Shown here piece after piece: positions 29,684 through 55,199 of a stretch of 55,653 nt of DNA. The number at the start of each line of letters is the position of its first letter. Within the stretch, counting starts at the first letter, position 1. The notes under the pieces are model-generated. The model saw only the letters and a program-made list of their open reading frames with translations. It was not told where the DNA came from and did no database searches. This stretch comes from Nemertoderma westbladi (lineage: Eukaryota; Animalia; Xenacoelomorpha). Position numbers and translations under genes: made by a program. Location: contig JAUCBJ010001266.1 of NCBI GenBank assembly GCA_032718475.1, positions 1 to 55,653 of the forward strand, given 5' to 3'.

Positions 29684-31591
29684 TTACACAATACCGAAGT
29701 AGTCCATAATTCTGGTTCTTTTTTCTGCGAGACTCAATGTTCTAAGATTAAATGTTTCTTCGATAAAGCTGGCCTTGGCCTTATCCCCAGTCAATGCTGT
29801 TCCGTGCGAGATACGATTCATCAGGGACTTCTTGTCATAGCGGTACATCAATAGGGACTCAAGCTGTGGAAGGGGAAAGATAGATGGCGCTCTTAAAAAA
29901 GAGTTTAGCACTCCCCGATACCGTGACCCAGAGGTTCTATCGAGACTCGCAACAGAGCAGTTAATAAACGATCCCTGTAAAGCCTTGCTGGGACAATCTA
30001 TAATTCGCACCATGGTTCCCACCGCTTGTCGCATTGCTTCCACTGATAGGGCATTGATGCTCGTAAGGTGCTCCAGTGTGGCGTTGCTAACATAGCGCCC
30101 AATGTAGAGTAAGCTGCGCAGAGCATTCCTGTGGGCGGCAGAGAGTCTATCCATGTCGTTCTGGGAGAGGTAACCAATGTGTAATCTCAGGTCGTATAAA
30201 ATTACAGGCAGTGCAACTGTTCTCCAGAGGTGAGATACGGTTTCAACAGGCAGCCATTCAGATGTCCATCCCTTGTTCTTAAGTGTCTGGCTTAGTGCCG
30301 CTATCGTCTGCAGAGTCTTGCTTAAGGGGTTAGTCATAACAGTAGCCAAATCGTACCCTAAGAAGCTTAACTTTTCGCATCTTGGTACCACTTTGCCGTT
30401 CAGATAAAGAAATGTTGGCCTATGACAGCCTTGGTGATTGTTGAACACTGTCCAGTTTACTTTGGATTGTTCTACTGTAAGTTTCATTTCTGCTGCGCTA
30501 TTATGGAACATGGTAAACATTTTCTCCATTCCCTCCTGCGTGTTAGAGACTAACAAGAAATCATCAGCATAAGAGATTGTTCCCAACCAGTGTGTGTCTA
30601 TCCAGCATCCGAGGTTGGAACTTTTCAAATCATCAAGAATGGATTTAGTATACAAATTGAAGAGGACTGGTGAGAGGAGTGATCCCTGTTTCAGGCCCCT
30701 ACAAACATGGATGCCTATAGCATCAACATCACTGCCGAACTTGAGAAAATAGAGGCTTCTGGTGTAATAGTTAAGGACAGTAGCGACAATGTGAGGGTTT
30801 ATTCCACACTCCGACAGCATTTTGCAGCCCAGAACGTTATAGTCAACAGTGTCGAATGCTGCTGACTCTATATCAAGCTGACAGAGATATACTGACTTGT
30901 TCTTCATCCGCAGATGCTCAATGCACTCTAACATCGTTGCAATGACAACATCAGACCCAATGTGACTACGGTAGGCTGTCTGGTTCTCATGGAGATCTAT
31001 GCTGCTAAGGAAGCTCTTCAGCACAACATGTTCAAACAATTTGGCCCAAATGCTGATTGATGATATTGGGCGATACGATTTAGGAGAGTAAACATCCTGA
31101 TTCTTGCCCTTATAGAGGCTTGTCAGAACCGAATGTCCAAATATATTAGGAACTTTCTTCAGCATGAAGGAGAGGTTGAACACAATTGCTAAGATTTCAC
31201 ATATTGGCTCTGGGTTCAAATGTAGCAAATGCTCAATAGTGAGCGAAGAGTTATCAGGGGCTTTCCCCGTAGATAGTGCTGCAATTGCTCTCTTCACTGT
31301 CAGTGAGGATATTTGTGGCAGCATTGAGTTTGCACACGCCAAGTCCATGTTAGTCTGTAGTTCATCACTCAACTTGGAGGGATTGTTGGAAAATTTTCTC
31401 ACATAACTATCGCGCAGCTTATCTTCCATCGAGGGGGGTATACCATTTCTGTTTGATTTATTTACCTTTGCCCAAAAGTATTTCGGATTTGAGTTGAATT
31501 TGTTGGCCAATTTATGTATTGATTGTGCGACTGAGTTTTTAGAGAGAAATTTTTTGATACGCCTTGTGCGTCGTTTGGACTCCTTGAACAC
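29684..31591 (-). CDS. LINE reverse transcriptase (frameshifted from the endonuclease ORF)
   Basis: GKAPD, SYRPIS, QTAYR, LDIESAAFDTV, GLKQGSLLSPVLFNLY, YADD, FLG. Confidence 0.92.
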   Translation of the reverse strand: MFKESKRRTRRIKKFLSKNSVAQSIHKLANKFNSNPKYFWAKVNKSNRNGIPPSMEDKLRDSYVRKFSNNPSKLSDELQTNMDLACANSMLPQISSLTVKRAIAALSTGKAPDNSSLTIEHLLHLNPEPICEILAIVFNLSFMLKKVPNIFGHSVLTSLYKGKNQDVYSPKSYRPISSISIWAKLFEHVVLKSFLSSIDLHENQTAYRSHIGSDVVIATMLECIEHLRMKNKSVYLCQLDIESAAFDTVDYNVLGCKMLSECGINPHIVATVLNYYTRSLYFLKFGSDVDAIGIHVCRGLKQGSLLSPVLFNLYTKSILDDLKSSNLGCWIDTHWLGTISYADDFLLVSNTQEGMEKMFTMFHNSAAEMKLTVEQSKVNWTVFNNHQGCHRPTFLYLNGKVVPRCEKLSFLGYDLATVMTNPLSKTLQTIAALSQTLKNKGWTSEWLPVETVSHLWRTVALPVILYDLRLHIGYLSQNDMDRLSAAHRNALRSLLYIGRYVSNATLEHLTSINALSVEAMRQAVGTMVRIIDCPSKALQGSFINCSVASLDRTSGSRYRGVLNSFLRAPSIFPLPQLESLLMYRYDKKSLMNRISHGTALTGDKAKASFIEETFNLRTLSLAEKRTRIMDYFGIV

Positions 31592-33690
31592 TGTAGCAAG
31601 GGGTGTTCATTGCCTTTTCCTTCTTCACTCCATAGTTGGTACAATTGTTGTGTTGTTTTCGAACTCTGGTGTAGAATTTTGGACCGAATTCTTATGTTTT
31701 TTATACCAGTCTTTCGCTTTGCTACTGGAATATTCAGAATTGCAGCATCATGAATTGCAGACTGTATGTTCTCCATCACACCATTGAGAGTTGCAGTAGA
31801 AGGTTTTCCACCTAGTTCAGATTTTATTTTATGGATATTCTCCAATAGAAGTGTGTCAACAGCAAATTTATATCTTTCCTTTTGGGCTTCAGTTGCTTTT
31901 GCCCAGTTAAATTTCATGATTTTCCTCCTTGTGGTTGGCTTCACTTTCTGCCCTGAATGGTCATTGTTGAACATAACCGAAAATGTCGCAATTACTGGTA
32001 CGTGATCTGAGTAGTTACTACCAGGATCTTCTTCATATACGCAGCCATCTTTTATCAAAACCATGTTTAACATTGGAGTCAATATGTGGTCAATATATGA
32101 CTGACCACCGTTGTGCCCATAAAACGTTATAACTGGCCCAGTGAACTGCTTGTGAGTATCGATGGCCCTTAAATTATTATCGTTTAGAAAAGAGTTAAGA
32201 ATCCGGCCTCTGTAAGATGATTTCTCAGTGAGGAATCTGTTTCCCTGCAGACTACCAAGATCAGCATTGGCATCAGTGAGGATGATGGGGATGCATGCTG
32301 AATACTGCTCCAGTAACCCATAGAGGCGGCCCAGGAACTCATCGTAGACTTCTTGAGGTTTCCCCGAATCTGGGGCATAGGCTGAAAGAATTAGAAATGG
32401 CTCGTTTGAGGAGTGAAGATGAGCAATTACGCCAACAATATTATCTCCAGATTTCACTTCACTGAAACTATTCACTTTATCCTTCCTCATGTAAAGGGCT
32501 ACACCACCTGCACCACGTATACGGTTAGGATTTCTCATTAAGTGGCTTACTGAATATATACAGTTGAAGTTGGCATCCAGTAGACACATTGATTCTTTGC
32601 ACTCCATGTCATCGAGCCAGTGTTCCTGGAGGCCTAGAAAATCACAGCTGGTTAAGAGCTCAGCAATGTATTTAGAGTTTGCCGCAAATCCATGGGTATT
32701 AAAAGTGCACAACCGCAGCTGTTCCTCCAAACCACATTCAGCGGTGTTAGTCTTGGTGAAAGGGCTGGTGGGCCCACACGGTCTATCTCTATACCCTGAA
32801 TTGACTGCATTGTGGTGCCGATCACGTTGCTCCATGTGGTGGTTAACTTGGTGGATGTGTCGAGGATGGTAGATCCAGTCCCGACACGTTATTCCTCTTG
32901 GCCAGAAACCAGGTACTTTTAGATTATCACCGATCCCTGAATCCACTGATATCTTCATATTCCTAGAGTCTCTGGAATTACGTGTTGTTATACGGTGGGT
33001 AGTTATACGATGATAATTTAAGTAATCAACTATATCATCCTCAGAGTACTCAAATGGCACACCGCTGATAAAGACCGTTGTTTGTTTTGATAATTGTTCG
33101 GACCAACTCTGTTTGCTTGAGCCCTGTTTTAATTCATTAGGTTCGTTGAGTGTTTTCCCTCGTCTATGATGCCTGATACCTCTGGCAGGACTGGCGTGTC
33201 TATGTGTACCCAGTTCAACCCTTGTTGATGTACGATTATTTGTTCTAGAGCTTGAGCTCTCAATCCTTGAACCAGTATCTTGCTTTGTATGAAGCTGATT
33301 TGAAATTGCCTTTAAGTACTGTGAATTTGAAATTGTAGCTGCATTGTCTGCTTCATCTGAGAGTAGAGGGGCAAATCTGTTGTTTGTTTGTCCCACCAAT
33401 TTGGGAGGGCAACCAGCAGAAAAATCCTTTCTTTGATAACTTCTCCACCTGGAAGTGATGGACCAGTCCAAATCGTTTGGCTTGGCATCATGATTGCCGT
33501 GGTGAGGTTGATCTCTTGGATTGGTTGGTGTGCTTTCCCCTGCTGATATAGAATCAATGATAAGGTACTCGTATTGGGAGCCTACTTGAGTCTTCTTTCG
33601 TTTGCCAGTCATTTCCCCACTGCTTCGACCTGAAGGTTCACATGCTTGCAGTTGTCCTTCTAGCCTAGTAATTTTTTCTTCCAAGATCAT
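31462..33690 (-). CDS. LINE ORF1-like RRM region in frame with APE endonuclease
   Basis: VFISGVP...FWPRGITCRDW (ORF1-type), then TFNTHGF, LQEHWL, GGVALY, SAYAP, TDANAD, SYIDHIL, SDHVPV. Confidence 0.85.
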   Translation of the reverse strand: MILEEKITRLEGQLQACEPSGRSSGEMTGKRKKTQVGSQYEYLIIDSISAGESTPTNPRDQPHHGNHDAKPNDLDWSITSRWRSYQRKDFSAGCPPKLVGQTNNRFAPLLSDEADNAATISNSQYLKAISNQLHTKQDTGSRIESSSSRTNNRTSTRVELGTHRHASPARGIRHHRRGKTLNEPNELKQGSSKQSWSEQLSKQTTVFISGVPFEYSEDDIVDYLNYHRITTHRITTRNSRDSRNMKISVDSGIGDNLKVPGFWPRGITCRDWIYHPRHIHQVNHHMEQRDRHHNAVNSGYRDRPCGPTSPFTKTNTAECGLEEQLRLCTFNTHGFAANSKYIAELLTSCDFLGLQEHWLDDMECKESMCLLDANFNCIYSVSHLMRNPNRIRGAGGVALYMRKDKVNSFSEVKSGDNIVGVIAHLHSSNEPFLILSAYAPDSGKPQEVYDEFLGRLYGLLEQYSACIPIILTDANADLGSLQGNRFLTEKSSYRGRILNSFLNDNNLRAIDTHKQFTGPVITFYGHNGGQSYIDHILTPMLNMVLIKDGCVYEEDPGSNYSDHVPVIATFSVMFNNDHSGQKVKPTTRRKIMKFNWAKATEAQKERYKFAVDTLLLENIHKIKSELGGKPSTATLNGVMENIQSAIHDAAILNIPVAKRKTGIKNIRIRSKILHQSSKTTQQLYQLWSEEGKGNEHPLLQCSRSPNDAQGVSKNFSLKTQSHNQYINWPTNSTQIRNTFGQR

Positions 33691-33975
33691 TCGTTGGTGG
33701 CGTTCTATACTAAGTTCATCTTGGATATATCCATATTTCTCTTTTAAGGAACAATTCTCCTAGAAGTACTACCTAGAAGTAGGGTATATTTCGTTTTCTT
33801 TTGTAAATCGTGTATCGTTTAATAAGAAAACACAACACTTCTTACTGTACATTATGTCAACTTGCCAGGGTAGTGGTGAATTACGCGTAACGCTGTAAGG
33901 TACCACTCTGCAGCGTTGCGGCCTATAGGACGGAATGCTGCAAAGTAATGCATAACCTGGAAACAACTTAAATTT

Positions 33976-36999: not shown

Positions 37000-37958
37000 C
37001 TACTAGTATCGACATGCTGCATTGCAGCTGCATTTTTAAGAATGATGTGCCGGCTTGTCAACAAAATTGCGCCGCCACAACTCCCTATCACCTATGACAT
37101 TGGCTAGATCGTCCGCATCTTCAAGGCCAGTGTCCTTTAAGATGCGTCTCAAGAAAGTCATGGGCTGTCCACCATGCTTATGGCAGCCAAAGTACAAGAT
37201 TATGCACTGGCTGGTCCTCATGGCGAAAGCAATGACCTGCAAAGCGGAGGCGATTTTGTTCATGTGTCAAGCTTGGGGGAACCAATGAGACACCTCCAAT
37301 GTTATATAGTGTCTGGTTTGAGATGTGTGCATTGTACTTGACACAATGAACCCGGCGTAGCATTCTTGTGAATGTGCTATCCAGAGATTTGGTGTCCTCA
37401 GCAGTTAGAGCCCAGCATGGACTCCCATAGAGGAGAACTGGAACTACTGATGCTCTAAATAATCGGACCTTAAGTTTCCGATTAATTCTCGGTGACTTCC
37501 AAATCCTGGAAAGCCTATTCAAGGCTGCCCATGCTTTTCCCTTACGTATTCGAAGGTCCTCACCTGACTTCCGGATCCATGAACCCAGGTAACAGAAGTC
37601 GTCCACATGCTCAAGCATACCATCCTTTGAGCTTATGCTCATCCGATCAGAGACTTGCTGAGAACTTTCAAAGTTAAATGTCAAAATTTTGGTCTTTCTG
37701 GAGTTAATCAAAAGACCAACACTAGAAGCAGCATGTTCTAATGAGCTGAGGAGCCGTTGGGCTCCCTCTAGTGATTCTGAGAGTACTCCTAAGTCATCAG
37801 CAAAGTCTAGATCAGTTAGGTACTTGGCAGGATTTCCTCGACTTCTGGAGCCAGTAGGTGGATTTATCATCACCCCATCATCATTATGATGATCTAAGGA
37901 CATGCGTAGAACATAGTCAAACACAATTATGAACAAGAATGGTGCAAGTGTGTCTCCC
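37000..37958 (-). mobile_element. 5'-truncated RTE-like LINE with a 55-bp target-site duplication
   Basis: QGDTLAPFLFIIVFDYVLR, LDFADD, FCYLGS, VLLYGS..W; frameshift near 37260; identical 55-bp flanks at 36945-36999 and 37959-38013. Confidence 0.9.
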
Positions 37959-38250
37959 TGTAAGTCTTATTGAGTGTACTGTGTAGGCTTACAGTATTGT
38001 AAATGCATGCATAGGCCTACTGCGCAGTGAGTGTACGGTAGGCCTATATACAGTACGAACAAACATACTGCAGAGGCCGGACCAAATACAGCGCAAATTG
38101 TGGTTTTAACCATATTTGCCATGTTGGTGAAATAAATATACAGGTTAGAATATTTTTGTACAGTAGTTGTTAGAAACAACTTATCAGTAAGACTAATAAA
38201 AGGTTAGTCATAATACAGCAATAATAAACATGTTGCAATCTTAGCCAGGT

Positions 38251-38626
38251 TGTTCGCGCTTTTAGACCTTTAGCAGTTTAACCTGCCAATTTTAGTTGTC
38301 CTCTTGTTTATAAATCGACTTTAGCCTATATCAATTATTTAATGTACTGAAGTTACATCAGCCGAAGCCAGTCTGTGCGCGATCATTCACCCACAGTTAA
38401 GGGAGACTGGATTCGGATTCCTTGATAGTTATTGCAATGTAGACCTACTGTATTATTCGATTGATCGTTACTATATAATCTCTGACAATATATTTACTTT
38501 CGGGGAAATATTAACAGTTCCTTTAGGACGTGGCGCTTTAAGTATAAAACAGAGTTATGACTTATACTAATCACAACTAGATGGCCACAGAGTTTCGTAA
38601 ATAGCGCATTCTTTAGGAGATGCTTT
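38251..38626 (-). repeat. BEL 3' LTR (matched portion; may extend to higher coordinates)
   Basis: About 5 differences from 54578-54954 counted by eye; ends CGAACA on the minus strand. Confidence 0.88.
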
Positions 38627-39317
38627 ATTATCTTTCACACTAATTCACACGACTCCACACTACTTCACACTACTGCGCACTAATCTGCCGACCGTCACTG
38701 AATTTGATCATATATAAGGAAGATCGCAACTGACACTTGTAGGGATTATGAAATAGCATTTAATTCACACAAAAACCACTATAATTTAAGTCGCAGTTGC
38801 TACCGGTAACCTGTTCCTCTTACCTTCAGTAATCAAGACGATTGGGGGTTTTATGATTATTTATCGGTATTCTCCAAATATAACAACATATCCATCAATA
38901 TAACAACAATTAATAACAGAAGTAAAATAATGCGGTGAACAGTCAGTATGTGTTACTTATGCAGTTATGAAATATTCAGTATGATATGTATGACAAGGTA
39001 GGTATGATCGGATAATAGATTTACGTTCCTATAATCAAAGCCATCTGATGTTTAGGCCAAAGTCTGAAACTTCTACACAGAAGTACAGAAGAATTCCAAG
39101 CCGGTTCTGAGGCTCAGAAAAAGGTAAACAAAGACCGTAATGCATTGCGCGGGTTTCCATAGGCCTGTGTCAGACATAAAGTGAAAATCGCTCTGATTGG
39201 CTGAGCAGAACAAAGAAGTTCCACGTCCACAAAGAATCAGCTGATAGATTTCGTTATCTGGGCTCTGATTCCTCCCTTTCACGTAGTTGGATAAATTTAG
39301 GGCTATTTTAGAGTATT

Positions 39318-39408
39318 CTGCGCATTGCGGGAAAAATGACTTGTTATGTCCGCAAAAGCCCCTACACTGCGCATTGCGGGAAAAATGACTTGTTATGTCC
39401 GCAAAAGC
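39318..39408. repeat. Two-copy direct repeat (42 bp, period 49) in the BEL 3' UTR
   Basis: CTGCGCATTGCGGGAAAAATGACTTGTTATGTCCGCAAAAGC occurs twice. Confidence 0.9.
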
Positions 39409-39744
39409 TTTTACACCGCTCCCAGAAAATGGGATTTAAGTCTATAAATATAAAAAATCACAGTTTCTAAAATATAAAAATACTCTAAACTATTAGTCTT
39501 TCTTACGTGAACGGCGTTTACGAAGTTTTTTGAGACTAGCAAGAGTCCTTTTCTCTTTGGGGCGAGCCACTTTACTAGGAGGGCTATAACTCCTGGGTGA
39601 GGGGTGCAATACAATTGCATCGGAAGGTTTAGGGTTGCGGTTGGTGTATCCGCCGGTCGAGGTACCCGGTTGATCGATATCAACCTCAGTGGAACGAGGT
39701 CGAACAACCTTTAGAGCGCGTTTCAGGACAGCAGCTCTTACTGG

Positions 39745-42700
39745 TCAACGATGGGTCGTTTGCACGAGAGCGGTAGGCGGACCGTGAGTAGTGAGAAATT
39801 TCATCGGTTTGATGGTTCTTTCCAACTCGCGTTCTCGGGCTCTATATTCATAGGGTCGTCTATGAACTTCCTGTAGTTCTGGATGCGAGTTGATGAACAA
39901 GTCACCATATTCCGGATCTTGACGGATGAAGTTGATCAAGTTATAGGAATTAAGGTCGTTAGGATTAATATTCCTAAGATACTTGCGAACAAATTTGGTC
40001 GAAATATTCTCGCCAACATGTTTCATTAGCTCGTAGCTAGGGGTGCGAGATTTTTGCTCAACCGAAGCAAAGAGATATGGGTGAAACGCATAGACTCCTT
40101 CATAGGCATGTCCAGGGTAGTACCGATGATGTGATTCGCAATGGAGATCCGCGTTAGCTTCCCAGGCGCGAATATAGCGAAGGGCAACCATTTCATCTAC
40201 GCTTTCTAGATCTCGGTTGAAAGGGCAACCGAAACTTGTGTGTCCTTTAAACTGGCAATGATGGCATTGAGTCATAAATTGAGGGCAGACTGCAAAGATG
40301 TGTAAGTTATTGAGTCTACAATACGCACAATAGATCTCCATGGTAGGTTGATCTTTAAAGTAGGAGCAGGGTACGCTGGAGTCCACAGGGGTGAAGTGGT
40401 CTCGTGATGTGCATAATCGGCAATGTTTCCTAGAAACATAATTGACATGCTGATAATTGTATGCAGTGAGACATTGTGGACCTTGATACCATTCCAGGAC
40501 GTAGTCATTGTCACTGCTCCTGGGCGCTGTGGGTTGAATCTCCTCGGATTCTAAGCAAATTGGTTCATCTTCCAATTGCATAGCTGAGGTAGATGTAGCT
40601 GTCTCCTCAAGCGAACCCACTGTTTGAACTTCCACGACAGAATAACCTGTGGGGATTCGGGGTCTTTGTATAACAGAAGAATGCAAGTTCTGTATACAAA
40701 CGTCCTTGAAAATAGCGAATCCAGCGCTGTCTAACTTCTCAGCAGCTGAGTCTCTTAGGCTGAGCTTTGTCAGAGCGCGGTCCTTGAACTGACTATCAAC
40801 GTTACGGAGTGGAGTCAGAAAGCGCCTAAAGCATTCGAATCGGATGAATTAATTGTGTTCATCTAGCTTGGCGAGTTTGGTTCCAAGTAACAAGGGATGG
40901 GTGCGTATAGTGCAACTGCACACATCGGCTAGCCAACCGGCAAGTGCGGCGTTCTCGAAGATAGTGTATATAGCTAATGAGGGAAGGAGTGGAACACTCA
41001 CGAAGCTATAAACGACGCCAGGTGCGGTTAATGGTCTGTCGAAGTATAATCGAGAATAATGATCTCCATATACAGTACTTGTTGGTAGCTGACAGGGTTT
41101 CCAACTTTGAAATTCCATCCGTATTCTTGGAAGGCAAGATGTCCGATAGAGGTTCGTTGTACTTTATTGATTCCGCTGGATGTATTGGCATACATAGATC
41201 GGAAGAAACCTCGGCCTTCTGCCCAGGGAGCAATCACCTGGGTGTCTAGAAAAGGATATGGGATATTCTTCATGTTTCTGAAGTCATTTTGGAGATCTCC
41301 ATAGACAGCTGAGCCGATTTTAATGATTCTTTCGTTAAACAGCATCTCGAGCACTGGCTGGGGTAACATCGATCCATCTATACCCATGGCCGGTTTGCGC
41401 TCGGTATCGGTGATGTAACGCTGCGCGAGTTCGAATTGTCCATGTCGGAGTTTCCTTTGGATCTCGGTGAGAGTCTCAAAAGAATAATCGATCACGTCGG
41501 AACACGCTCGAGTAAACACATGGGTAGAACCAGCTAGTCCACGTATGTGTATAATTCGCGTAGTTACCAGTTCTCCAACCGGAACGCTACCTTCGTTATC
41601 GTAAGTGACAACTCCATACATTTCGATAATGTTAAGAGTTTCGTTCCACTCTTTGGTGGCGTTTTCTATGGTCATACCCACTGGATGCCATAATGTGGCG
41701 TGTTTGCTCGCGTTAGGTAGATCGCTATACTTCAGATAATGTGTAGTATACGTCTCTACATCTCCATATCGCTGTATTCTCTCTTCCTCGAATAATACGT
41801 CGAGATTCCAATGGACTAATCGAGTTTTAATAAATCCATCGAGATTATACGGGGGAATTATATCTTTTTCTATTCTTGAAACATTATACGGTTTCCTGAA
41901 TGAGTTTACTTTGACCAATTGATCTAGATGTTTCTGTAATTGTTCGAGTTCAACAAGATCTAGGGGGTTTATCAGTGGCAGAAACCTTAAACTGTGCGTA
42001 GGATCTTCAGGTTTCACCATATAATATTGAGTTAGATTGACATAATAAGATCCCATAAAATGAGTTCGGTAAAGGTCTAGCGCGTAGGTTGACCTCGTGT
42101 ACCATAAGACGGACAAGATCCGCTCGATTGTCCGGAGGTTCAACGAGTATACCATCGACACGAGCGGCCTCGATTGGCGGACGTTGTAACATAGGAGCGT
42201 CAGCGATAAGATCTCTAGATCTTAGGTTGATATCAACCGGTTGGGGTTGTACCGTGGTGAAGAGTTTGTCTCCGAAATGGGGAACAATTGAAGGATGAAT
42301 AATGGTTTTGGAATAGAGATCAGTCATAAGGATTTGAGCTTCTGGCTGGGCTAAAGCAGCTTCTTCTCTCTCGTCCATTTCGATATGCTTCTCCTTGAAC
42401 TGATTTTCCTCCGCTTGTCGTTGGAAGCGTTCGTCCAAAAACTCTTGCAGAGAGTAGGTTCGTCCAAGTTCGATGTCTTCCTCGAGATTCTGAATTTCCC
42501 GATCGAACTGAGGTAAAGCTAATTCTTTTACCGCTTGGACTTGCTGCTGCAATTTACGTTTATCTAAACAATCGTAAGTTCCTTTTCCGATCTTTTGCCG
42601 AATAGCGTCTAACGCATTTCATACAATGCTCTCTTCCACCTCGGTGACGGGTTGTATCGGGGTTAAACAGTGACGATTATACGGGTTAAACGGCGATATT

Positions 42701-43740
42701 AAATGTCCGCGTCCCAATCCGGCTAGGTAAGATGGGCGGATATCTAGGGAGCCCACAACCGGAGTGCCACCGACTAATTGTTCGGGTAACACTAGACCTT
42801 TGAACAATGAGTACAGTTCAGGAGGATCCGTCATACTATTAGGATCAAGAGTCTGAGGTCTCACTAGGGAGTGAGGAGGCCTGACCGAGTATTCCGGAAC
42901 TCTGATCATAGGTTTATTTAAGGATCGTTTGAGTCGAGCAAGCGTAGGTGATACGTCGAACAAGTTTCGCTCGAAACTCCCATAAGTATAGTGAGTAAAA
43001 CTGTGTTTAGCGCAACGTCTCCACGGATGTTTATGTCTTTCCGTTTGTTGGTTGGGTCTAGGGCATTCATCGCAATAATACCAAAGATGCATGTCTTGTA
43101 GGGGAAACGAGGGTGATCTTTCTCCAGTTTTAGAATATTCCTCCATCTGTTCGAAGCTATCCGGTACAACAGGTAGCGGTCGATCGGCAGTAAGATACAT
43201 CATAGTAAAATAGAGTCGTTTGAGTTCTATCATAGGGTTATGATGTATACCTTGAGGATATCGAGTTTCTAGATTTTGTTGACTGGCTACATAGAGATAT
43301 GTTTCTCTCAGGAATTCCAAATATTCGTTGAAGTCACTGCATTTATCCGGTTCTTCAATGTCTTCTCTTTCGAGTCGGTTTCGAATAGAATTTTCGTGTT
43401 CAATTCTCAGTTTATCGTTCCGACTCCTCTGCGTATGATATTTAAATAGGATCATTTCCCTTTCGGTGTCTACATCGTCCGTATCGTGTAAATCGATAGG
43501 ATGACCAGTAGTTAAGAAGTCCATATACGTACCATTACGATGCGTATAGCGAGCAGTGAATTTTCTATAGTCCAATTCACGCGTGAGCTGTTCCTTTGAC
43601 ATTGGCGGTTCGATATAACGGCCATCGTCCTCCGTAGTAGGTTGACTAGCGTCGCCACTTATTAAACTATCAACAAACGCTTGCAATGGTAGGGTATATC
43701 GCTCCCTGATACTAAGATCATCTTCTATCAACTCAGTCAT
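39745..43740 (-). pseudogene. BEL cargo ORF (~1330 codons): unknown N-terminus, coiled region, DEDDy-like 3'-5' exonuclease, CCHC zinc fingers
   Basis: ORFs 42619-43740, 42007-42552, 40849-41118 and 39745-40686 share one frame, with single in-frame stops joining the first and last pairs; 41028-42161 bridges them through two compensating frameshifts. Motifs: VVTYDNEG, LFNERIIKIGSAVYGD, FLDTQ, SIGHLA, FDRPLT....VY, CHHCQFKGHTSFGC. Confidence 0.7.
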
Positions 43741-44552
43741 AGCTGCTATATGAGTTTATCAATATTATAATTAATGATATATAGGCTAGCGGTCGTCGCT
43801 GTCTCCCCCTCAATGCCCCCGGACAGCGCAAGATCCTCAGCGCTGATGTACTGTCGTCGCTGTGCCTCTCGCCAACGTAGTAGCTACACAATGACAACAA
43901 TAACCAGCGCGAGTCACTCCACTGTCCGTCCCAAGGGCTCAGAATTACTTCAGGTTCTTGCTACAGAGGCAGGGTTACTTTCACAACTGCGACTCGCTAC
44001 TGTAAACACACTTTAGTAGTAACATTCACCTATAAATGCACAAATTCCACACACTTGTCACAAATTGTACACATTCGGGCCATTTGTCCGTTAGTCAAGT
44101 GCCTTCCAGAATGCCACGTTATTATTATGTATCCCTGGATACTAGCAGGGTGCTATTTATTCCGTATGCTATTCAATGGGGCAAGCTTTCTATTGTTCTT
44201 TTAACTCGCTTCTAATTCTAGCGTGGTTGTTGCTATGGTGACATTATGGAAAGCTAGCAGTAGAATTAGGGTAATTCTCATGTATACAGATCTGGGATGC
44301 TATTTAATAGTAATTCTTTAATTGTCAATATTCCCCTTTATACATGATTTTATGAATTTTATCGGCTATTGACTGTACACTGGAGATTCTCGCACACTAA
44401 TATACTTAATAGGGTGAATCTCCGCTCCCATGATCTATTAATTAATGGAATTTTGGGAATGTTATAAATTGTATAAAATTACAATTTATCAAATTCATGA
44501 GAGGATATGAATTTAAAATTTATTCCCGTAAATTTTATTATTTGATATTAAA

Positions 44553-44930
44553 ATGGACACAATTTTATTCCAGAACAGGTCTGGGAACTAGGATCCTTAA
44601 TTCTAGGAATTTTGTCTTTTTAAGAGTATCGGTAACTGCTACGATATCTTAATCGACTAGAATTTTAGAGGATCGAAAATTTTACAGATTTGATTTATTG
44701 ATTTTCTAGAGTCAATTTGTTATTAGTTACTCTATTATAACATTGATTTTTACAGATTTTATAAATATTAATTAAATATTTAATATTTAAGATGGGCACC
44801 GATTTATTCCAGAACATGTCTGGGGACGTTAACCACTGATTCTAGAATTTTGTCTTTCAAGTATATCGGTGGGTGCCGCGATATCTTAATCGACTAGAAT
44901 CTCAGATGGTCAAAGGGTTTAACAGATTTA
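44553..44930. repeat. Diverged ~140-bp direct repeat (period ~240) between pol and the cargo ORF
   Basis: Shared blocks TTTATTCCAGAACA.GTCTGGG, GAATTTTGTCTTT, CGATATCTTAATCGACTAGAAT and ACAGATTT. Confidence 0.8.
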
Positions 44931-45499
44931 TTTTGCGTTTTTACGCTACTGTAACATGGACATCATTCTACTATATGTATTATTTAATATACGGTATGAG
45001 AGCAATATTGCAAGAAGCAATGTCAGTGAGAAGAGGCAAGTCGTTTCCAAGGTCTACCCAGAGCTTGGTTTAGCCGAGACACGAGGATCTGAACTTTGCA
45101 TTCCTAATACTCTACTTACCAATAATACTTAAGTATAGTAGGGGCGGTATTGTACTTTTAATAAGTACGGACATTTCATCTTACTGTAGTCACATATTTA
45201 TAATATGAAACAGACAGTAAGGAAAGAGAAAAAAGAATTATTTCTCGCCGTTTAACTAAATATATAATGTTAAGTAATTAAGTAATAAACACGAATATAT
45301 TGCACTAATCTACTGAATCTTCGCTAAAATAATATTCTACTAAATAAAATTAAAGAAAACGATTATAATAATAAAATTACATAATGATGCATACATAAAT
45401 ATAAAAATAATAAAAAAATATAAAATAATGTAGTCACACACCCACTCCAGACGCTGTTACGTTGGGGAGTCCCTAGATGTTTGTTGGATTAGGGAGGTG

Positions 45500-48400
45500 G
45501 TCGTGGGAAGAGTATCTTGCCTTCCATAGTTTCCGGATAGCTCTCTGTCTCTTTATTCCAGTAAACATAAACGACCAACTGGGCGATTGAGTTGTTGTGT
45601 TTCGAATACAATTCCAGGTTTCTTAAAGTTACGTCGCATGACGACGAGTTCTACCTATCGCACTAAACCATCATCGGATATATGAGCCTCGATGATACGA
45701 CCTGTCTGCCACCGCTTTCGTGGAAGATCTGATTCCACAATAAGGACCATGTCTCCGGCGCAGACGTTTTCTTGCTTCGCAAACCACTTGGTTCGAAGTT
45801 GTAGCGTAGGAAGATAATGTTTTTCGAAATGGTCAGCGAAACGACGGGATAATAACTGCATACGTTGCCAAGTTTGTCGGCAGTATTTGTCTCCGTCCGT
45901 GATTTCCGATTGCGGGAGCATGGCTACAGGTTTCTTTAGTAGGAAATGCGCGGGTGTCAGCGCTTCTAGGGAGTCGGGACTCGATGAGACTGGCATAAGC
46001 GGTCTCTCGTTAAGATAGGCGGCGATTTCTTCCATTAATGTCCGCAAAAGTTCGTCGGTGAGATACGCGCGGCACGGCACTATAAAGTGAAATGCGGTCT
46101 TCACGCTCCTTATTAATCTCTCCCAACTTCCTCCCCACCAAGGGGCGTCGGCGGCGTTGAAGGTCCAGCTAGATGCTGTTACCCTTAGCTGATCGTCCAC
46201 CTGTCTTTGGTTCCAATCTTTAACATAAGCTTTGATCTCATTATTGGCGCCAATGAAGTTCGTTCCCTTATCAGATCTCATCGTGTTGCTAGTTCCAAAG
46301 CGAGCAATCTGTCGGCGTAAGCTCAGTATGAAGCTGTTGGTAGATAGATCGTTCACCATATCTAGATGGATCGCTCTACAAGTCATACAGACAAAGATGA
46401 CACACCATCGCTTGACTATAGTCCTAGCACGATATACTTCAATAGGGCCAAATAAATCCACACCGGTATTAGTAAAAGGTGGCTTACTCGTTCCCTGGGT
46501 AATTCTGCCTCTCGCTGTGTTAAAGGCCTACTGAATGCTTTCCTTCAGGGTATACAGTTCCTAAGAACTTGGTTCAGAGCTCTACGGGGTTTATGAAAAT
46601 AATAGCGAGTTCGAATTTCGCTAAAACTCGCTCTCTACCAGCATGGTAAAGCTTACTGTGAACATCTGCAATCATCTTGATTTGTATTTCAAGATTTCTA
46701 ATAAGTATGGGAAATTTAGTGTCAAAGGATAATGGAGCATTAGTTAATCTCCCTCCAACACGTATTAACCCATCTATCATTGTGCTAGAGAAACGATCCC
46801 TTAAGCGCGTCTGTGGATTTCTCAACAACAGGAGATACTTATCGGAATCTTCATAGCATTGCAGGAGTCTCAGTATCTGCTTATTGGTTTCTTCATGCTC
46901 TTGATAACTGATCTTTTCCGTCAGAAACCTATCTGATACTTTGTATTTGGGAAGATCTTTAATAGTTGGATCTGCTCAGATTTCGGTGGAGCGGTATCAC
47001 TAGCGATCTTCGTCCTGGAGTAGTGATGATGGAAGCATCGCTTCAAATATACGACGGCCTTACAAAGCCGGTTCCAGGAGCTATAGTGATTTATCGCTCT
47101 CTGCAGGAGAGGTGAGAATCCCTGCGAGACGTCTGGTGTTCCAGATTTCCAGTCTCTTTCTCTGATTTCTACAACAGATTTATTTGTGGCGGGGGAGTTT
47201 AGATCCACAGCGTCGTCCCCGGAGATGTGTAGTACAGACAGATCTATCACGGGTTTAAATAACTTTGATTTACTCGTCTGGGTTTTGGGTTTGACTTTCT
47301 CCACTCCTACAGCCGATGGCTGTAGCGTATAGAGCCGCCTTTAACTCCGCTCGAGGAACTCGTAGATTGTTGTTTATCAAGGCCTTAGAGGTAACCAAGG
47401 CAACTTTAATTCCATCCAGAGTTTCAAACCTCAGGTAGGCTACTATACCTATTCCCATATCGCTGGCGTCTCCAAACACATGGAGTTGATAGGAATATGT
47501 GGGGAGAACGTGACCAAAACATGAACGGGAATTCGTAAAGTTCGCGATGGATGGTAGAGAATCTTCCCATTTCATCCACTTCTTTAGTAGTTCTCCCTTA
47601 AGTGGATCATCCCACGAGTGGCTTTCAAGCCACATTTGCTGCACTAAGCTCCGAGCAACCAATATAACTGGGCTAATAAATCCCAATGGATCGAAAAAAG
47701 TGCTCAGGATACTTAGACAAATCCGTTTAGTTCGAACTGGATTATCTCACTGTTTTAGCTGGAAAAACAGGATATCTCACTCCGTGTCCCATTTCAAACC
47801 AAGCATCTTGGTTTCCGGAAGATCGTCCTTGATAAGGTCCAGATCTTTAACACCTCGGTCTTCTACCGGGATCGATTCCAGAAACTCACGGGAGTTACTA
47901 GTGAATTTGGTTAGTCGAAATCCACCGCGTTTCAAGCACTCTACCGTTCCCTTGGCAACATCATATTGCCGTAATCTTAAGAGTATTCCCAACAAGGATT
48001 GGAGTAAGTTGGGTCCCGGCAACAACTCAGAGTTAAGGGATTGACACATGTAAAGGGCGGAGCCGTCAAACACTACCCGGACTTCGTTGGGTTTACCGGG
48101 CTTGGGAACATAATGATGTGTTAGATAATACGTTCTCTCCGTTATGGGTGTTTCTTCCGGTACTCGCTCCGCGTATCCTTTATCGATAAATTTCTTCAGC
48201 TGGGTTTTATACATTTCCCTGGCTGGAACGTTGGCCGTAAGACGCCGATGTAGTTGCGCGATTCTCTTTTCTGCTAAAGGTCGGTTATTTATAAAGTTGG
48301 GTTCTTGCCGTCAGAACAGAAGACCAATCTCATAGCGACCTTCATCTTTCAGAAAACGGGTAGTCGTTTCCTGAATCTGCTTGGCTCTCTCTTCCTCAAC

Positions 48401-49600
48401 GGACAAGGCTTTGTCGTAGGAATTAGGCTCTACGGCTTCTTGAGTAAAGAATCATACAGCGTGTTCATCGCGAATTTTGTTATTGTATCGATCTATCACT
48501 TCGTTTAATTCGTCGTTATATGTGAATTGTCCACCATGTTGATCGATAAGATGGCACAAGTTTACTTGGTTTATCCAAGTTTGATTTTCGGTTACGAGGT
48601 CGATTGTATTTTCCTCGTCATATAATTGGTTAATATCGTCATTGTCCGAGGAGTATGGTGTTCCCTCAGTTGTGGTTTCTCCCTCACTAATTTCTTCTTC
48701 CCATTCACTCACCTGATGTATCCTCTCATTAGGGAGTCTTTCCATTAGGGTTCTACGGGAAGGTCCAGTGAAGTACCAACTTACTCTCGTTCTTCCCGCG
48801 TATGTTTGTAATGGTTGCGGTTGAGCAGGTTTTTTCCGTTTTTCTAATGTCTCAAGCGCTTCGTGCGCATTTTGGCCGATTAATATCTGCACCCCTGGGT
48901 AATCGGTGTTGAATCTAGGGATATCATGTTGCTGGTTAAAATGGTCTTCATCCCAGTTGTAAGGCTCCACTTGGCTAGTAGCAAAGTTCTTTATCGCCAC
49001 CATTTTTACTGACCTTACGCTATGTTCTCCTAGTTCATCCTGTGGAGTGGACAACGCACCCACGTAGTAATCTGTAGCTACTGTGGATTTCCAAACCTGC
49101 ATAATTCCTGAAAGGTTCAACTTAGTTTGGAACTTAGGTTGTCCAGCAAAGATGTTTTCGGCTAGTTCTTTGTCAATGAAAGTACCTGTGCTGCCGGAGT
49201 CAAGAAGGGTGTTTACTATGAGGCTCTTCCCTAGCCCGTGGACTCTCAGTTGCACCACAGGGAATTCCCGGATTCCGACGGAGGAAGTTGGTGCTTTCCA
49301 AGATGGCTGTCGATCCGGGATATTCAGCCGAGGATCTTCCACTTCCGACTCAGTCTCGTACGTAAGTGCTCGATACACAGCGGTGTTTATCATATAACAG
49401 GATTCATTTTCGTCGGAGAATTCGTCCGTGTAGAATCCTTCCATCTCAGAACTGTGGTCTGTGTCGTTCACATCACTGAATTGGACATGTAGTTCGGGCT
49501 CACTTACCTGACTCGTGCGGGTTCTGTCAAATTCTGTGTGCAGCAAGATATGATGTTTTGCGCCGCACTTAGCACACCTCGAGTCTGAGTAACAGGTCCT
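45500..49600 (-). pseudogene. pol: BEL/Pao pol (PR, RT remnant, RNase H, integrase), frameshifted and internally deleted
   Basis: LLDSGSTGTFI; RVVFDGSA..SLNSELLPGPNL; GGFRLTKFTSN, LGLKWD; LHVFGDAS, PRAELKAA; LIRVGGRL; DLFGP, SDKGTNF, PWWGGSWERLIRSVK, LTPAHFL. Confidence 0.93.
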
Positions 49601-52600
49601 TCGTTGATGTCCTCATCTTTGACAATTATAATACAACCGCTTATCCCACATGACATCATGTCTATCCTTAAGGGATTTCTTCAAGAATTCATCACACCCA
49701 CTCAAGCGATGTGGCCCGTCGCACAATGCACATTTGGGTTTGATGTTACTTACTTTAACCTGTGTTGTGTTGTGCACACTTGTTCTTTCCTCGGGCTTTC
49801 TTCCATGAATTCTCTTAGGAGACGTAGGAGGAGTTGTTGTTACCTGTTCTCTCCTGTCACTGGTTCGAGACTTAGATTTACTTACGTCTTTCCGAGTTTT
49901 ATTGACATAATAAGATCTTTCGGTGTCTTTCCCGCTGTTCTCCTCGTATGAGGTTTGGCTTTCGCCGTCGTCTGTATAACACACTGGTGTTACCTTTCTC
50001 CTAGATACGGGTTTTTCACTCACCTTACTTTCCGGTGTCTTCTCTCTGGACTGCTTTAGAAGCTGTAATCTTACCTCTCCATTTAAGAATGACATGAGAT
50101 CAGCCATGGTAGGGTCTCTTTGTTGCTGGTCCATCATATAGAGAACCTTTTTGTCCCAATGAGTACCTACTCCACCCTTTGGCAAAGTAGATGCTACGGC
50201 TCGAACAACCATAGAACTCTGATATTCCTGAGACTTACCTAGCCAATCTAACTGTCTACAGATCTCCTGGATCTCATCGGAAAACTCGATAATCCCTCTG
50301 CTAAGAAACTTTCGGGGCGCTACTAATTTCGCATACAAATACCTAGCTATGTTAGTCCTATTACCATACCTGACATTTAGTGTATCCCAAACTTGTCTTA
50401 ATCCATCTGGATGTCCAATAAACTTTAACGCCATTAACTTGGGAGGTCCTTCCAAGCACTCGATGAGGAATCTAAGATTCTCTCCGTTAGATAGTACAGA
50501 GTTCTGTATGTTATCTTTATGATATTCATTAAAAGGTAACCATTTCATCTCATCTCCATTAAACTTGACGACCTCTCCCACCTTTACCGCTTGACGGGCT
50601 TCAGTTCTAGCCATTTGACGTGTAAAACTCTCTTGAGCCATCGTATTATTTAATATCGAGTTATCGGTATATAAATTTCTCGGATTATGATCAGATCTGT
50701 ATGGGATATCATTATCAACAGGTTTATAATTACCCTTAATAGGGTTTACTATAGGAGTTTCTACTTCACTAGCAGTATAGATGCGTGTAGGCTCCACACC
50801 TTGCGCATGAAGTACTTCAGACCTAACAGGTTGACACATAGTTACAGGGGGTGGTGGTATACCCACATGTATATTTACTAATTTATCACTCTCTAAAGCG
50901 ATACTTTGTTGCACTTCTTGCAATTCTAACCTACTCTCTCTCACTGTTCCCTTTAACTGCTGAACAGTCCCTTCCAATTCGCGGACCTGCTGTGAAGACC
51001 TTCGTTTATGGTCTTCCAGCTGCCCGAGCAGGCGATCCAACCCCCGCCGCCCCTCGTCTACCCACTCAACCGCCGAAGCGGGAGCCGCCAACATAGTAGC
51101 GGGGAGACGCGTAGGGACATGTGGGTTCAGACGTGTCGTTTCAGGGTTACTTAAATCTACGCTAGCTAGTTGCCTTCTCACAGCCGGAGGCAAATTAGGC
51201 AACTTCTGCCAGTGTGGCGTTCTTCTACGTCCGCTGGAACGAGATTTATTTCCTCTACCTTCAGGATCTGTTGTATCGCCTTCATCAGAGGATGTAAATC
51301 CCTGTCTTCTGGGAGTAGATCGACTCAGCAGCTGCATCTGAGTAGCTGTTCTCTGTTTATTTAAGTAATCTTGCTTCGCTTGAAGATTTTCCAACTCTAG
51401 TTGGGTTGTCTCTTCAGATGCTCGTCTTTCTGCTTCGGCCACTGCCGCTTTTCTTTCAGCCTCTGCCGCTGCCGCTTTCCTTTCAGATTCTGCCGCTGCC
51501 GCTGCCGCTTTTCTTTCAGCCCTCCCTGCCGCTTTCCTTTCAGATTCTGCCGCGACCGCTGCCGCTTTTCTTTCAGCCTCTGCCGCTGCCGCTTTCCTTT
51601 CAGATTCTGCCGCGGCCGCTGACCTTCGGTCTTCTATTTGCTTTTTCTTTATCTGCTCTTCTTGGTCCATAGCGATGAGGATGCTTTCATCAAATTTAGC
51701 CTGCTCAGCGGCTAATATTTCCGCATCTAACGAGTCCAACACAAATTTGGCTCCCTCGCTATTGGGATGAAGTCCAGCTAGTCGTCTTCTGAGTTCTTTG
51801 TCACCTATAAATCGTTGATAATCCGACAGATAGATGTCAATCGCATCCTTCTTCTGAGGTTTTTCGGATGTCGCTTCGCCTTCCACATGAGAAAATGTGG
51901 CGTCTGTTGATTCTCCGTGGGTCATGCGCTCGGTTAGCTGAACTTTCCATTGTGTCGTTCCCTGGACTTTAAGACTCACCCGTTGGAACCAAGTTTTTAC
52001 GGCCACTTGCAACGACGTGTCTTGGCTCCTCTTCGAGGCTTCCTCAAAGGCCGAAAGGATTAGTCTGATCCGTTAAATTCGTTCTCGCACTTGATAAAGC
52101 AGCTCTCCCTGCTCTTGAGGTCCTTGACGTTGTTGAAATAGGTGTTCTTCTAATCGCTCCAAAGAACTGAAGAATCCCTGGACATATCCTGCTGCCGACC
52201 TCTTCCACACAGCTGGATCTCGAGTGTCCCTTACTACTCCCATCCTGTATAAGTCCTCCCAGGCAGCTTCCGATAAGTTAAACGGGAGTCCGGGTCCGGG
52301 GAAGTTCCATTGCGCCTCTACAATAGACCTCAGTTCCTCCATCGTATATCCCGCATAACTGTCCCTGGTCGATCGCTTACTTCTCGCCCAATCGATTTGA
52401 TGTTCCTCCACAGCTATCAACACTCTAGTGAGTACGGCTCCAGGAAGAATTAGAAGTGGATCTGGATAAACCGCTTCTGCCATCCTTGCTCCGATCTCGG
52501 GTGTCAACTCTTCGGTGTCTGAACTGCTAGAGTTATCAGGCCGTTGAGAAATAAGTTCTCGGTTCGGGTGTTGCTGCTGCTTAACAGCTGCCTCTTGGTC

Positions 52601-52802
52601 TCCGCTTAACTTGAGCCCTAGTGCCTATGATAGACCTATGGTGCTTTACTAGCCTAGGGTCTGATACTACTACTGTAGGGATGACCTTTCTTACAGTAGG
52701 AGGGGACTTGGACTTCGGTCTCAGATGTTCTATACTCTTATCTGAGTCACAGACTGTTCTTTCTAGGAGACTATCTGACAGTGTTTGCTTTGTGTCAGCC
52801 AT
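49550..52802 (-). pseudogene. gag: BEL/Pao gag (main ORF 49613-52012 plus frameshifted upstream pieces)
   Basis: KFNGDEMKWLPF, LIECLEGPP, W..L..RYG; triple Cys/His knuckle region CALCDGPHRLSGC...CAKCGAKHHILLH; Ala/Glu-rich coiled repeat. Confidence 0.88.
51430..51620 (-). repeat. Coding tandem repeat AAA(A)E(S/A)ERK in gag
   Basis: About seven imperfect 27-30 nt units. Confidence 0.85.
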
Positions 52803-54577
52803 GATTTATTTTACAGTTGAATGCCTACTACTATAACGACAGTTAAAGCAAGTCTAGTAATTCAGTATCAACTGTAAGCCTAGTAATTAATTACCGATAC
52901 CGTTACTCAGTGTAACGTGATATATATATAATATTAAAATACCGGTATACACTTATAGTATATATATAAGTATTATTACAGACTAGGATTAGTCACAGAA
53001 TACCGGTATATAATTTCAGCCTAAATTTATATAAATAAATATAATAAGCCTACGGTAAATACCGGTAATGTCAATTATTTTATAATAACTGAATTTCTGA
53101 ATTTTAGGGTTACTTCCCTTTACTTTATTACTGTTATTAAGCAGTAGTCCAACTGATATTAAGACCTAATTGATGTATAACAGGCCTACTATTTTATAAA
53201 TCTGTTTGAGTTGATTTATAAATATATATATACCCGTACAATGGGTTTTGACTATATTTGAAATAAATGTTATTATTTCTGGATAAGGAGTCACTACACA
53301 GAAGCTGAACGCTCTCAGTGGAGTGCTACTTGTTGGACACTAATTTAGATAATTCTACTTTACTAAGTTACTTATCACTACAAATTACTTACAATTCACA
53401 GTTTGAGATTACAATCTCTAAATAAACAATAACAAGTTACACGTACAATTTGTTAGGGTAATTTTACAAGAAATCTACAAACCAGCCTAACAAGGAGTTA
53501 GAATTTCTGGTTCTTACAAACTGACAGGAAACTACGGTATTTGAAAACAATAAAGCAGTAGTAAGTAAGTTGCGTTGTCCAGATAAGGAAATACCACCGT
53601 CTGACGACTTATAGTCTTAGCTCTATAAGTACTACGTTATGTACCCAGAGTGTCCTTACCTAGAGGTTAATTACCGAAGCCAACCAGAGCTAACGTGCCT
53701 ATTAACCACGTTACAACACAAATATATTGCCTACACACAAAATTACTTTCGGAAAGCACTGTACGCTAAACCCTAAATTAGGTACAAGTACTTATACAAC
53801 AAATAACCAGCAGTTAAATATACTTGAACAGCCAAAAGAACCATGGTATCTGCTGGAGTGACCGAGCACCAAATCACCAGTCTTTACCTACGCCAAGCAG
53901 CCCTGATGTAGTACCGGGGTTAATTTAACTATAACAGTATGTATAACAAGCACAATTACTGTAGGAATAAACTTGGGGAGTTGGAGGTTGCGAATACTCG
54001 CATAGACTCTGAATAATAAATATTACGCTACCCGTGCAGACTATACAAACAAAACACAGACCAAATGCTGCCAGACTACTGTCAAGCCTAAATAAACTAC
54101 AGTATATGCAGACTCCGATATGGTTAGTTAGTAGGCGTTCTAACCGAGTAGTACGACTTATTCTTTCGGGGGGGATTTACCTTACAGTACTGGATGCCCC
54201 CACCTTCCTAACTAGCACTTTATCGGACAGACACTCTACACACACTGCAATCGCATCAGACCTAACAACAGTTAGACAACAATCCGGCCTATAAATTATT
54301 TATACAATCTGAGCAGGCTTACACGCATTCTGCTCAATATTACACTTACAGATAAATAAAACTGACAGAAATAAATAAGCTCTAAAAGAAATAAGGGGTG
54401 TACAGTCCCTACTCTCTTAAACAGCCTACCAATATACAATATATCACAATCGAAATAATACTGGTACCGGTAAGTACCGGTTCGGGTGGTTAGGCAGTTA
54501 GGCCTACAGTTTACCGTCCGACCGATACATTTGACTTTATTGCCTACGGCGCAATAAAGAAACTAAAAATCTATTAT

Positions 54578-55165: not shown

Positions 55166-55199
55166 TTTGCATTTTGGGGCAATTTATTTTCATTTGGTA

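Follow-up and report, generated by a model that had tools for sequence, protein, structure and literature searches.

DEDDy-type ORF3 genes are known from the Juno, Vesta and Athena/Terminon elements of bdelloid rotifers (Rodriguez, Kenefick and Arkhipova 2017, PMC5408684). In Juno and Vesta, as in the element of Nemertoderma westbladi described here, an RNase D-like DEDDy gene without a membrane anchor occupies the env slot downstream of pol. The rotifer elements differ in that they are not described as BEL/Pao in the available text of that report and their catalytic residues are reported as intact (DEED); compared by description, the same text mentions neither an array of zinc knuckles nor a multi-domain ORF3 of 1,400 codons. 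The novelty lies in the BEL/Pao host and in the size and multi-domain make-up of the gene, while a DEDDy cargo in the env slot was already known (available text of PMC5408684). An earlier note on this DNA knew of no BEL with such a cargo, and none was found in the literature for BEL/Pao (one may be listed in Repbase, GyDB or Dfam, or described in supplements or in papers behind subscription, all outside this search; 'exonuclease' has 0 occurrences in PMC3118150 and PMC9094657), but DEDDy ORF3s in LTR retrotransposons had been published, as the accessible part of PMC5408684 documents.

The element shares with the Belpaoviridae (PMC8742986) a gag gene, the PR-RT-RH-IN order, Pao-specific Pfam domains and a TG...CA LTR of about 1.2 kb. 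At 16.7 kb or more it far exceeds their 4.2-10 kb and, unlike them, it has a third gene without likeness to env, apparently lacks a primer site of tRNA type and, in this copy, has no RT core. Two other systems are comparable in some respects. In Egalitarian and EXD1 an RNase D-like fold binds RNA and catalysis is dispensable or lost: with all five catalytic residues mutated, the RNA binding and function of Egalitarian are intact, and Exd1 works through an inactive domain (10.1101/2025.08.03.668247, text available in part). This likeness is one of working only, and both proteins differ from ORF3 in being host-encoded and, in the same partial text, in having no described CCHC knuckle array. Cer1 of C. 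elegans encodes an accessory RNA-export protein, CERV, which has a Cys-rich motif and a basic NLS and handles the element's own RNA, but Cer1 is a Gypsy-type element, CERV shares a segment with gag, and no exonuclease domain is mentioned ('exonuclease' has 0 occurrences in the accessible text of PMC10309623).

Overview of the element

The window analyzed is the whole 55,653 nt stretch of N. westbladi contig JAUCBJ010001266.1, and on its minus strand lies a BEL/Pao element that measures at least 16.7 kb and has the following features outside ORF3.

54577-54954, minus strand: inner 378 bp of the 5' LTR, whose outer portion is absent from the window
54567-54577, minus strand: primer-binding position, self-priming-like, with 11 nt that are the complement of 39022-39012 within the LTR
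49613-52801, minus strand: gag region, broken by stops, with DUF1759 (E 1.7e-10) and a Cys/His knuckle at 49732
45555-49612, minus strand: pol region, with protease-like sequence, RT remnant, Pao RNase H and integrase with DUF5641, and several stops and frameshifts
43741-45554, minus strand: spacer between pol and ORF3, 1.8 kb, non-coding, covered continuously by sister contigs
38251-39415, minus strand: 3' LTR, about 1,165 bp, TG...CA, outer edge inferred

This is a decayed copy and a member of a multi-copy family. The LTR pair (54577-54954 and 38250-38626) is identical at 373 of 378 positions (98.7%), and 54955-55653 gave no match when compared with the remainder of the element. The 3' LTR has a length within the 0.2-1.2 kb of BEL/Pao LTRs, the 5' copy being truncated. 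It is directly preceded by a purine-rich 8-mer, the ORF3 stop lies about 80 bp upstream, and one sister contig diverges from this copy at 39416, next to the LTR edge. A tRNA-type (TGG) start, expected in BEL/Pao for tRNA(Arg/Gly), was sought at the primer-binding position and none was found, host tRNAs not being part of the comparison; the 11-nt complementarity at this position was reached by 12 of 2000 LTR shuffles. Gag and Pol carry Pao-specific domains in the order that characterizes BEL/Pao, with pol matches to Peptidase_A17 (E 3.5e-32), DUF5641 (E 6.7e-17) and, weakly, Asp_protease_2 (E 0.016), and an RT remnant recognized by eye. The RT catalytic motif is missing, [YF]xDD being absent from all minus frames of 47000-49000. 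This loss marks the copy as defective and carries no statement about the family.

Reading frame and domains of ORF3

ORF3 lies between the integrase and the 3' LTR, co-oriented with pol, and is divided as follows.

39493-43740, minus strand: ORF3, with in-frame stops at 42621, 40851 and 39747 and frameshifts where pieces overlap, at 42221-42007 and 41163-41028
42010-43740, minus strand: N-terminal part of ORF3, of acidic composition and matching no family, with one Cys/His motif at 43074-43012
40950-41670, minus strand: DEDDy/RNase D-like domain, from profiles, alignments and position matrices
40225-40422, minus strand: three tandem CCHC-like zinc knuckles from a pattern scan, the last a canonical CX2CX4HX4C
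39493-39744, minus strand: possible basic C-terminal tail, a candidate past the third stop, net charge +17 in 83 codons, NLS-like

The five pieces from which the earlier note assembled the frame are all present within the LTRs, downstream of and co-oriented with pol (43755-42619, 42618-42007, 42221-41028 in another frame, 41163-40849 and 40848-39745). Its two stops and two frameshifts were found as well, but the frame of about 1,330 codons that it gave ends at a third in-frame stop, beyond which the frame continues in a sixth piece of 83 codons (39744-39493), so that the total is about 1,330-1,416 codons and possibly the larger figure. Open frames of 397, 378 and 367 codons compare with a maximum of 207 in 300 shuffles. 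By eye, the N-terminal part contains a charged stretch that is possibly helical. The knuckle region matches zf-CCHC_3 at E 0.063, and its ESM features lead to zf-CCHC and DUF8363 clusters, all below 0.9. Neither the knuckles nor the possible basic tail figured in the earlier account.

By sequence resemblance, the middle of ORF3 is like an RNase D-type DEDDy domain. The NCBIfam model rnd matched the nuclease region at E values of 2.2e-4 to 1.5e-3, under the curated cut-offs, and ESM features gave 0.94 to DNA_pol_A_exo1, with 174 features in common; a Pfam search, which had been proposed as a check, gave no DNA_pol_A_exo1 match in ORF3. Our own RNase D profile scored 20.9 bits against the ORF3 core, with none of 1000 decoys as good, and a WRN-like profile 3.0 bits, a ranking of kinship that is limited to bacterial types, the DEDDy profiles having been built from bacterial proteins with no eukaryotic sequences. 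A polymerase-exo profile and a short alphaproteobacterial DEDDy profile, which we take to be NrnC-like, gave no signal against ORF3. The significant part of the match is a core of about 45 residues, and it is statistically firm for the ExoII core only. Of the DnaQ-like, WRN-type pattern originally proposed, the DEDDy-like domain is retained, but its nearest profile is of RNase D type.

With the nuclease piece as query, 17 of 301 genomes matched at E <= 0.01, and the matches that could be cross-checked (7/7) all fell inside PF01612 matches; tblastn against 72,556 plasmids gave a sole match, to rnd, at E 4. Neither the nuclease piece, in a weak search of longer proteins, nor the knuckle piece had homologs at E <= 0.001. 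Viral and metagenome contigs searched with the nuclease piece and the integrase yielded no related loci, and phage sequences no match. A sole match among 1.84 billion representatives, to an Hcp-repeat bacterial protein, was rejected as chance; the only hit of a PDB sequence search (glutamine synthetase, E 0.03) was rejected too. Single-sequence AlphaFold modeling gave no usable fold (pLDDT 29), and a second model, built on 37 aligned bacterial DEDDy proteins, reached 58 with residues 39-106 unresolved. Foldseek matches of the second model (RNase D at E 0.007, EXD2, viral DnaQ-like) are circular and were excluded from the evidence.

The motifs quoted in the earlier note were all found in the sequence, and a full set of catalytic acids is possible. 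Candidate ExoI acids are Asp 41600 and Glu 41594, and the ExoII acid is Asp 41297, which lies within the statistically significant core. MAFFT aligned all three with invariant columns, ExoI requiring an insertion of about 39 residues; the ExoI window ranks top for the WRN-like matrix at a p of 0.14 at best, which is not significant, and hhalign places ExoI elsewhere. For ExoIII, the register RPLT-x5-Y-x3-S was ranked first by the RNase D position matrix (p ~0.01, 300 shuffles), and puts Tyr at 41010 and Ser at 40998, where the last Asp is expected. The suggestion that this Asp has been replaced fits the better-scoring register, but a weaker one offers an Asp: in the WRN-like profile alignment it falls just after the second frameshift, with a probability of 13%, and the MAFFT alignment terminates at a Tyr close by. 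The frameshift interrupts this alternative register, and the canonical Tyr-x3-Asp spacing is unreadable in this copy.

Conservation among sister copies

Sister contigs from three studies cover ORF3 and indicate a deep and diverse family. Together they cover 30 of 30 bins from the integrase to the LTR, but no single contig spans the integrase through ORF3, so the linkage to pol, which the sister copies had been expected to settle, is directly visible in this copy only. Some sister contigs skip 2.5-2.8 kb that hold the nuclease and knuckles. To the eye, the loose contig ends listed for the spacer resemble local divergence, not the borders of an element. Within 1.1 kb, indels between sister copies are confined to the two frameshift sites. 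In the ORF3 frame, silent changes make up 23 of the 38 differences listed, where 10.6 +/- 2.6 would be expected, and none of 5000 simulations reached that number; the other two frames give 7/38 and 8/38 for the same differences. Outside the nuclease piece, third positions account for only 11 of the 24 differences listed. The sister coverage, the restriction of indels to the frameshifts and the mostly silent differences therefore point to a selected cargo of the family, and ORF3 is very probably a BEL/Pao cargo gene.

Possible functions of ORF3

By analogy with the systems introduced above, we tentatively favor a nuclease, weakened or inactive, that would attach to RNA of the element itself so as to protect or route it. 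Such a protein would be made from subgenomic or spliced RNA, with the knuckles and basic tail holding the RNA and the exonuclease fold gripping a 3' end or stem-loop, a grip that would need no catalysis, as in Egalitarian and EXD1. Once bound, it might keep host 3'-5' decay away from the transcript, or take this RNA to export and packaging. The protein would be supplied in trans, because this copy lacks the core of its RT and the domain is skipped in some sisters. The Ser at the last Asp position, in the better register, is on the side of this reading.

That an envelope or other membrane protein, strongly diverged, sits here is hardly credible: ORF3 does occupy the env slot and has a marginally hydrophobic 19-mer (Kyte-Doolittle 1.73 at 41016, all other pieces <=1.06), but this sole hydrophobic stretch falls in the candidate ExoIII helix, and the nuclease-like and knuckle motifs indicate a soluble protein. 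The hydropathy scan found no hydrophobic N-terminus of the kind that a signal peptide needs and, apart from that one internal segment, no candidate membrane anchor, in line with the earlier exclusion of Env. A separate nested element or passively carried host retrogene with no role in the BEL cycle is very unlikely, although integrase and ORF3 are seen joined in one copy alone and the skipped segment includes nuclease and knuckles. ORF3 ends close to the purine tract and 3' LTR and lacks terminal repeats of its own (no repeat >13 nt is common to the spacer and the region after ORF3), the bins are filled throughout with spacer ends that resemble local divergence, the silent-site excess extends across many copies, and no cellular homolog was found.

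Should the domain be catalytic, ORF3 could be an active 3'-5' exonuclease, holding its substrate with the zinc knuckles and trimming the element's RNA, its primers or the ends of its cDNA in replication, a role proposed for the rotifer ORF3s (accessible part of PMC5408684). The fit of the ExoI and ExoII acids to invariant columns and the Asp of the second ExoIII register are consistent with this, and the apparent lack of a tRNA primer site, with possible self-priming, might call for RNA end processing; it is nevertheless somewhat unlikely given the Ser of the better-scoring register and the statistical weakness of the Asp register, which has a frameshift inside it. Proofreading, a further role raised in the earlier note, is conjectural. 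Less probable again than active trimming is suppression of small-RNA silencing, the earlier note's idea: as a decoy or trimmer, ORF3 would bind piRNA/siRNA guides or degrade them, or would compete with host factors of the Mut-7/Nibbler/EXD1 type. Host DEDDy proteins do act in these pathways (PMC5408684, text available in part), and a deep, diverse family across three studies is what an arms race would lead one to expect, but the best bacterial match is of RNase D type, among profiles without Mut-7/Nibbler/EXD1-type sequences, and the same partial text reports no clear correlation of the rotifer DEDDy ORF3 with copy number. Decidedly unlikely, in our estimate, is a dominant decoy in which an Rrp6/RNase D-like fold and Air1/2-like knuckles in one chain keep transposon RNA from exosome or small-RNA 3'-end processing; if true, it would be an animal retrotransposon-encoded silencing suppressor, in a 17-kb BEL/Pao lineage, that mimics a host RNA-surveillance module.

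The presence of a DEDDy cargo in the env slot of BEL/Pao, a separate LTR family, suggests a repeated benefit to retroelements of having their own 3'-end RNA-handling protein. With its knuckles and doubtful last Asp, ORF3 provides a concrete protein for asking whether such accessory nucleases cut, shield, export or block silencing.

Genomic Context and Element Anatomy

The window consists of animal-type DNA that is rich in repeats and includes satellites and LINE remnants. A domain search of the window recovered the following minus-strand gag and pol domains, a set by which the element is assigned to the BEL/Pao retrotransposons; Peptidase_A17 is identified with the Pao RNase H-like domain in an excerpt of PMC3985635.

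Features of the window (domains given without coordinates are from the domain search)
42–9091, satellite, 36-nt unit, 251 copies
13976–14341, satellite, short second block of the 36-nt unit
19503–26675, satellite, 41-nt unit, 172 copies
29684–33759, minus strand, LINE remnant with endonuclease and RT
37178–37966, minus strand, LINE remnant with RT and DUF6451
TG at 39415 to CA at 38251, minus strand, 3′ LTR (probable extent), purine-rich 8-mer immediately before
54577–54954, minus strand, 5′ LTR, only the inner 378 bp kept
Minus strand, gag (DUF1759)
Minus strand, aspartic protease (weak match)
Minus strand, Peptidase_A17
Minus strand, integrase with DUF5641

A GC-rich stretch occurs at about 9–14 kb, and the LINE remnant at 37178–37966 is flanked by identical direct repeats of 55 nt (36945 and 37959). 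The 3′ LTR probably spans 39415–38251, and one sister contig becomes unlike the window at 39416, matching the LTR start, where there is a 49-bp tandem duplication (39318–39415). The direct repeats at 54577–54954 and 38250–38626 are identical at 373 of 378 positions, and so close a match suggests that the last insertion was recent; the target-site duplication is unreadable because the 5′ LTR keeps just its inner part. The element measures at least 16.7 kb (about 17.5 kb counting the whole 5′ LTR), well above the 4.2–10 kb given for Belpaoviridae in the ICTV profile (PMC8742986). The 5′ leader and the spacer between pol and the third gene, ORF3, measure 1.8 kb each, and the LTR about 1.2 kb. Within the spacer, about 160 bp are duplicated in diverged form (44539–44933), and the gag frame contains an Ala/Glu/Arg/Lys-coding tandem repeat with units of 27–33 nt (51425–51621).

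The present copy is dead, its gag-pol being broken into many pieces with no RT YxDD motif left, and it was therefore likely mobilised in trans. No tRNA-type primer site was seen after the 5′ LTR; the first 11 nt past it (54567–54577) are complementary to LTR-internal 39012–39022 (chance, 12 of 2000 shuffles), so that the primer region resembles a self-priming-like signature. An 8-bp hairpin lies within about 45 nt after this complementarity.

The ORF3 Frame and Its Predicted Domain

All five ORF pieces that the earlier note had joined into a non-Env cargo gene are present. ORF3 starts with an ATG at 43740; its frame is interrupted by stops at 42621 and 40851 and at one point switches to another frame and back. 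Beyond a further in-frame stop at 39747 lies a sixth piece, still in frame and with a strongly basic end, which lengthens the gene to up to 1,416 codons and brings it to about 80 bp from the LTR. Such frame lengths were never reached in 300 shuffles. A hydropathy scan found no signal-like N-terminus, as had been claimed, and one marginal internal hydrophobic segment. In the C-terminal part, a pattern scan found three tandem CCHC-like zinc knuckles, with weak Pfam support (E 0.063) and ESM leads all below 0.9 with low recognition.

Four blind look-ups (NCBIfam, plasmids, proteobacterial genomes and ESM) agree on a predicted DEDDy-type domain in the middle part of ORF3, the nuclease piece. NCBIfam returned RNase D models exclusively (E values between 2.2e-4 and 1.5e-3, well short of the cut-off), 72,556 plasmids gave a single match, rnd (E 4), 17 matches came from 301 proteobacterial genomes at E ≤ 0.01, and a profile built from 31 RNase D domains scored 20.9 bits with 0 of 1000 shuffled decoys higher, although these four largely share an ExoII core of about 45 residues and are not fully independent. 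All seven of the 17 genome matches cross-checked by place fell inside PF01612 matches. With ESM features, DNA_pol_A_exo1 clusters scored 0.94 and made up 25 of 30 hits; just 11–31% of members in the top three clusters carry that label. The DEDDy-like assignment is favoured by the RNase D and ESM results. A profile built from 30 bacterial WRN-like proteins reached just 3.0 bits, with one decoy above, and the Pfam search gave no DNA_pol_A_exo1 match for ORF3. Searches of protein collections and of viral and metagenome contigs found no true homolog. An alignment-guided structure model (pLDDT 58) and its fold matches were discounted as circular.

The ExoII Asp at 41297 is firm. ExoI Asp 41600 and Glu 41594 fall on invariant columns in MAFFT, given an insertion of about 39 residues after ExoI; the ExoI window test was non-significant and hhalign picked another register. 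Under the RNase D matrix, the top-ranked ExoIII window is RPLT-x5-Y-x3-S (16.8, with a null mean of 3.5; p ~0.01 over 300 shuffles); in this register the last Asp is replaced by Ser, as proposed earlier, but the WRN-like alignment places ExoIII, with weak statistics, on an Asp just past the second frameshift. On these alignments, a defective active site appears somewhat the likelier state.

Sister Copies and Selection

Gene-bearing data came from four sequencing runs (X1–X4), representing three samples and three studies under one organism label. Sister contigs together cover 30 of 30 bins from integrase to LTR, mostly at 90–99% identity. Over 40990–42110, where 2727, 2048, 1134 and 40 contigs aligned, there are just three indel rows, one at the second frameshift (41163–41028) and two at the first (42221–42007). 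The former takes all of X4 depth and a minority in X1–X3; for the latter, the listing shows single X4 contigs only, and loose ends occur at this place in X1, X3 and X4. This confinement to the two frameshifts supports one continuous ORF3 frame in sister copies. Of 313 rows of differences, the 40 best supported were considered; two of these belong to the next piece and were excluded, leaving 38 in the nuclease piece. Third positions account for 22 of the 38 (p 0.002), and 23 are silent where 10.6 would be expected (0 of 5000 simulations). The other ORF3 pieces show a weak third-position signal (11 of 24 listed rows). ORF3 is a real, selected accessory gene.

Two observations count against tight linkage: no sister contig bridges pol and ORF3, and some skip 2.5–2.8 kb that take in the nuclease and the knuckles; the depth of these skips is low in X1–X3 and high in X4, the skipped-over letters not being visible. 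Skips of this size within 39636–43366 occur in all four runs. The skip-bearing sisters suggest amplified deletion derivatives.

Possible Function

The anatomy of ORF3 (exonuclease fold, knuckles and basic tail) points to an RNA-binding module; low-scoring AIR2-like ESM leads suggest a resemblance to the combination of Rrp6 with Air1/2. Excerpts of the literature describe Egalitarian and Exd1 as binding RNA through an exonuclease fold without catalysis (10.1101/2025.08.03.668247) and Cer1 as an LTR element encoding its own RNA-export factor (PMC10309623). Given this anatomy and these precedents, the favoured though still tentative reading is a pseudo-nuclease whose product would grip the element's own RNA, which may thereby be protected or routed. 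An active trimming enzyme is a less probable reading, drawing on the ExoI columns and the WRN-like ExoIII Asp but facing the Ser of the top-ranked window, and a silencing suppressor is somewhat less probable again. Both 3′-end processing and silencing, together with inactive derivatives, are already discussed for rotifer DEDDy ORF3s in PMC5408684. That ORF3 is a passenger or part of a nested element is improbable: linkage to pol may not be tight, but no terminal repeats of a separate element, which the earlier note would have taken as a refutation, were found around ORF3. A divergent Env, with the marginal hydrophobic segment on its side and the N-terminus against it, is barely credible.

Literature searches among openly accessible papers found no BEL/Pao element with exonuclease cargo, nor did term look-ups within two BEL/Pao papers (PMC3118150, PMC9094657). 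RNase D-like DEDDy ORF3s are described for the rotifer Juno and Vesta elements and Terminons (Rodriguez et al. 2017, PMC5408684), an account repeated in reviews (PMC6431247, PMC5718144, PMC6338049). DEDDy cargo is therefore already known in rotifer elements, and the BEL/Pao example here is a new variant of it.
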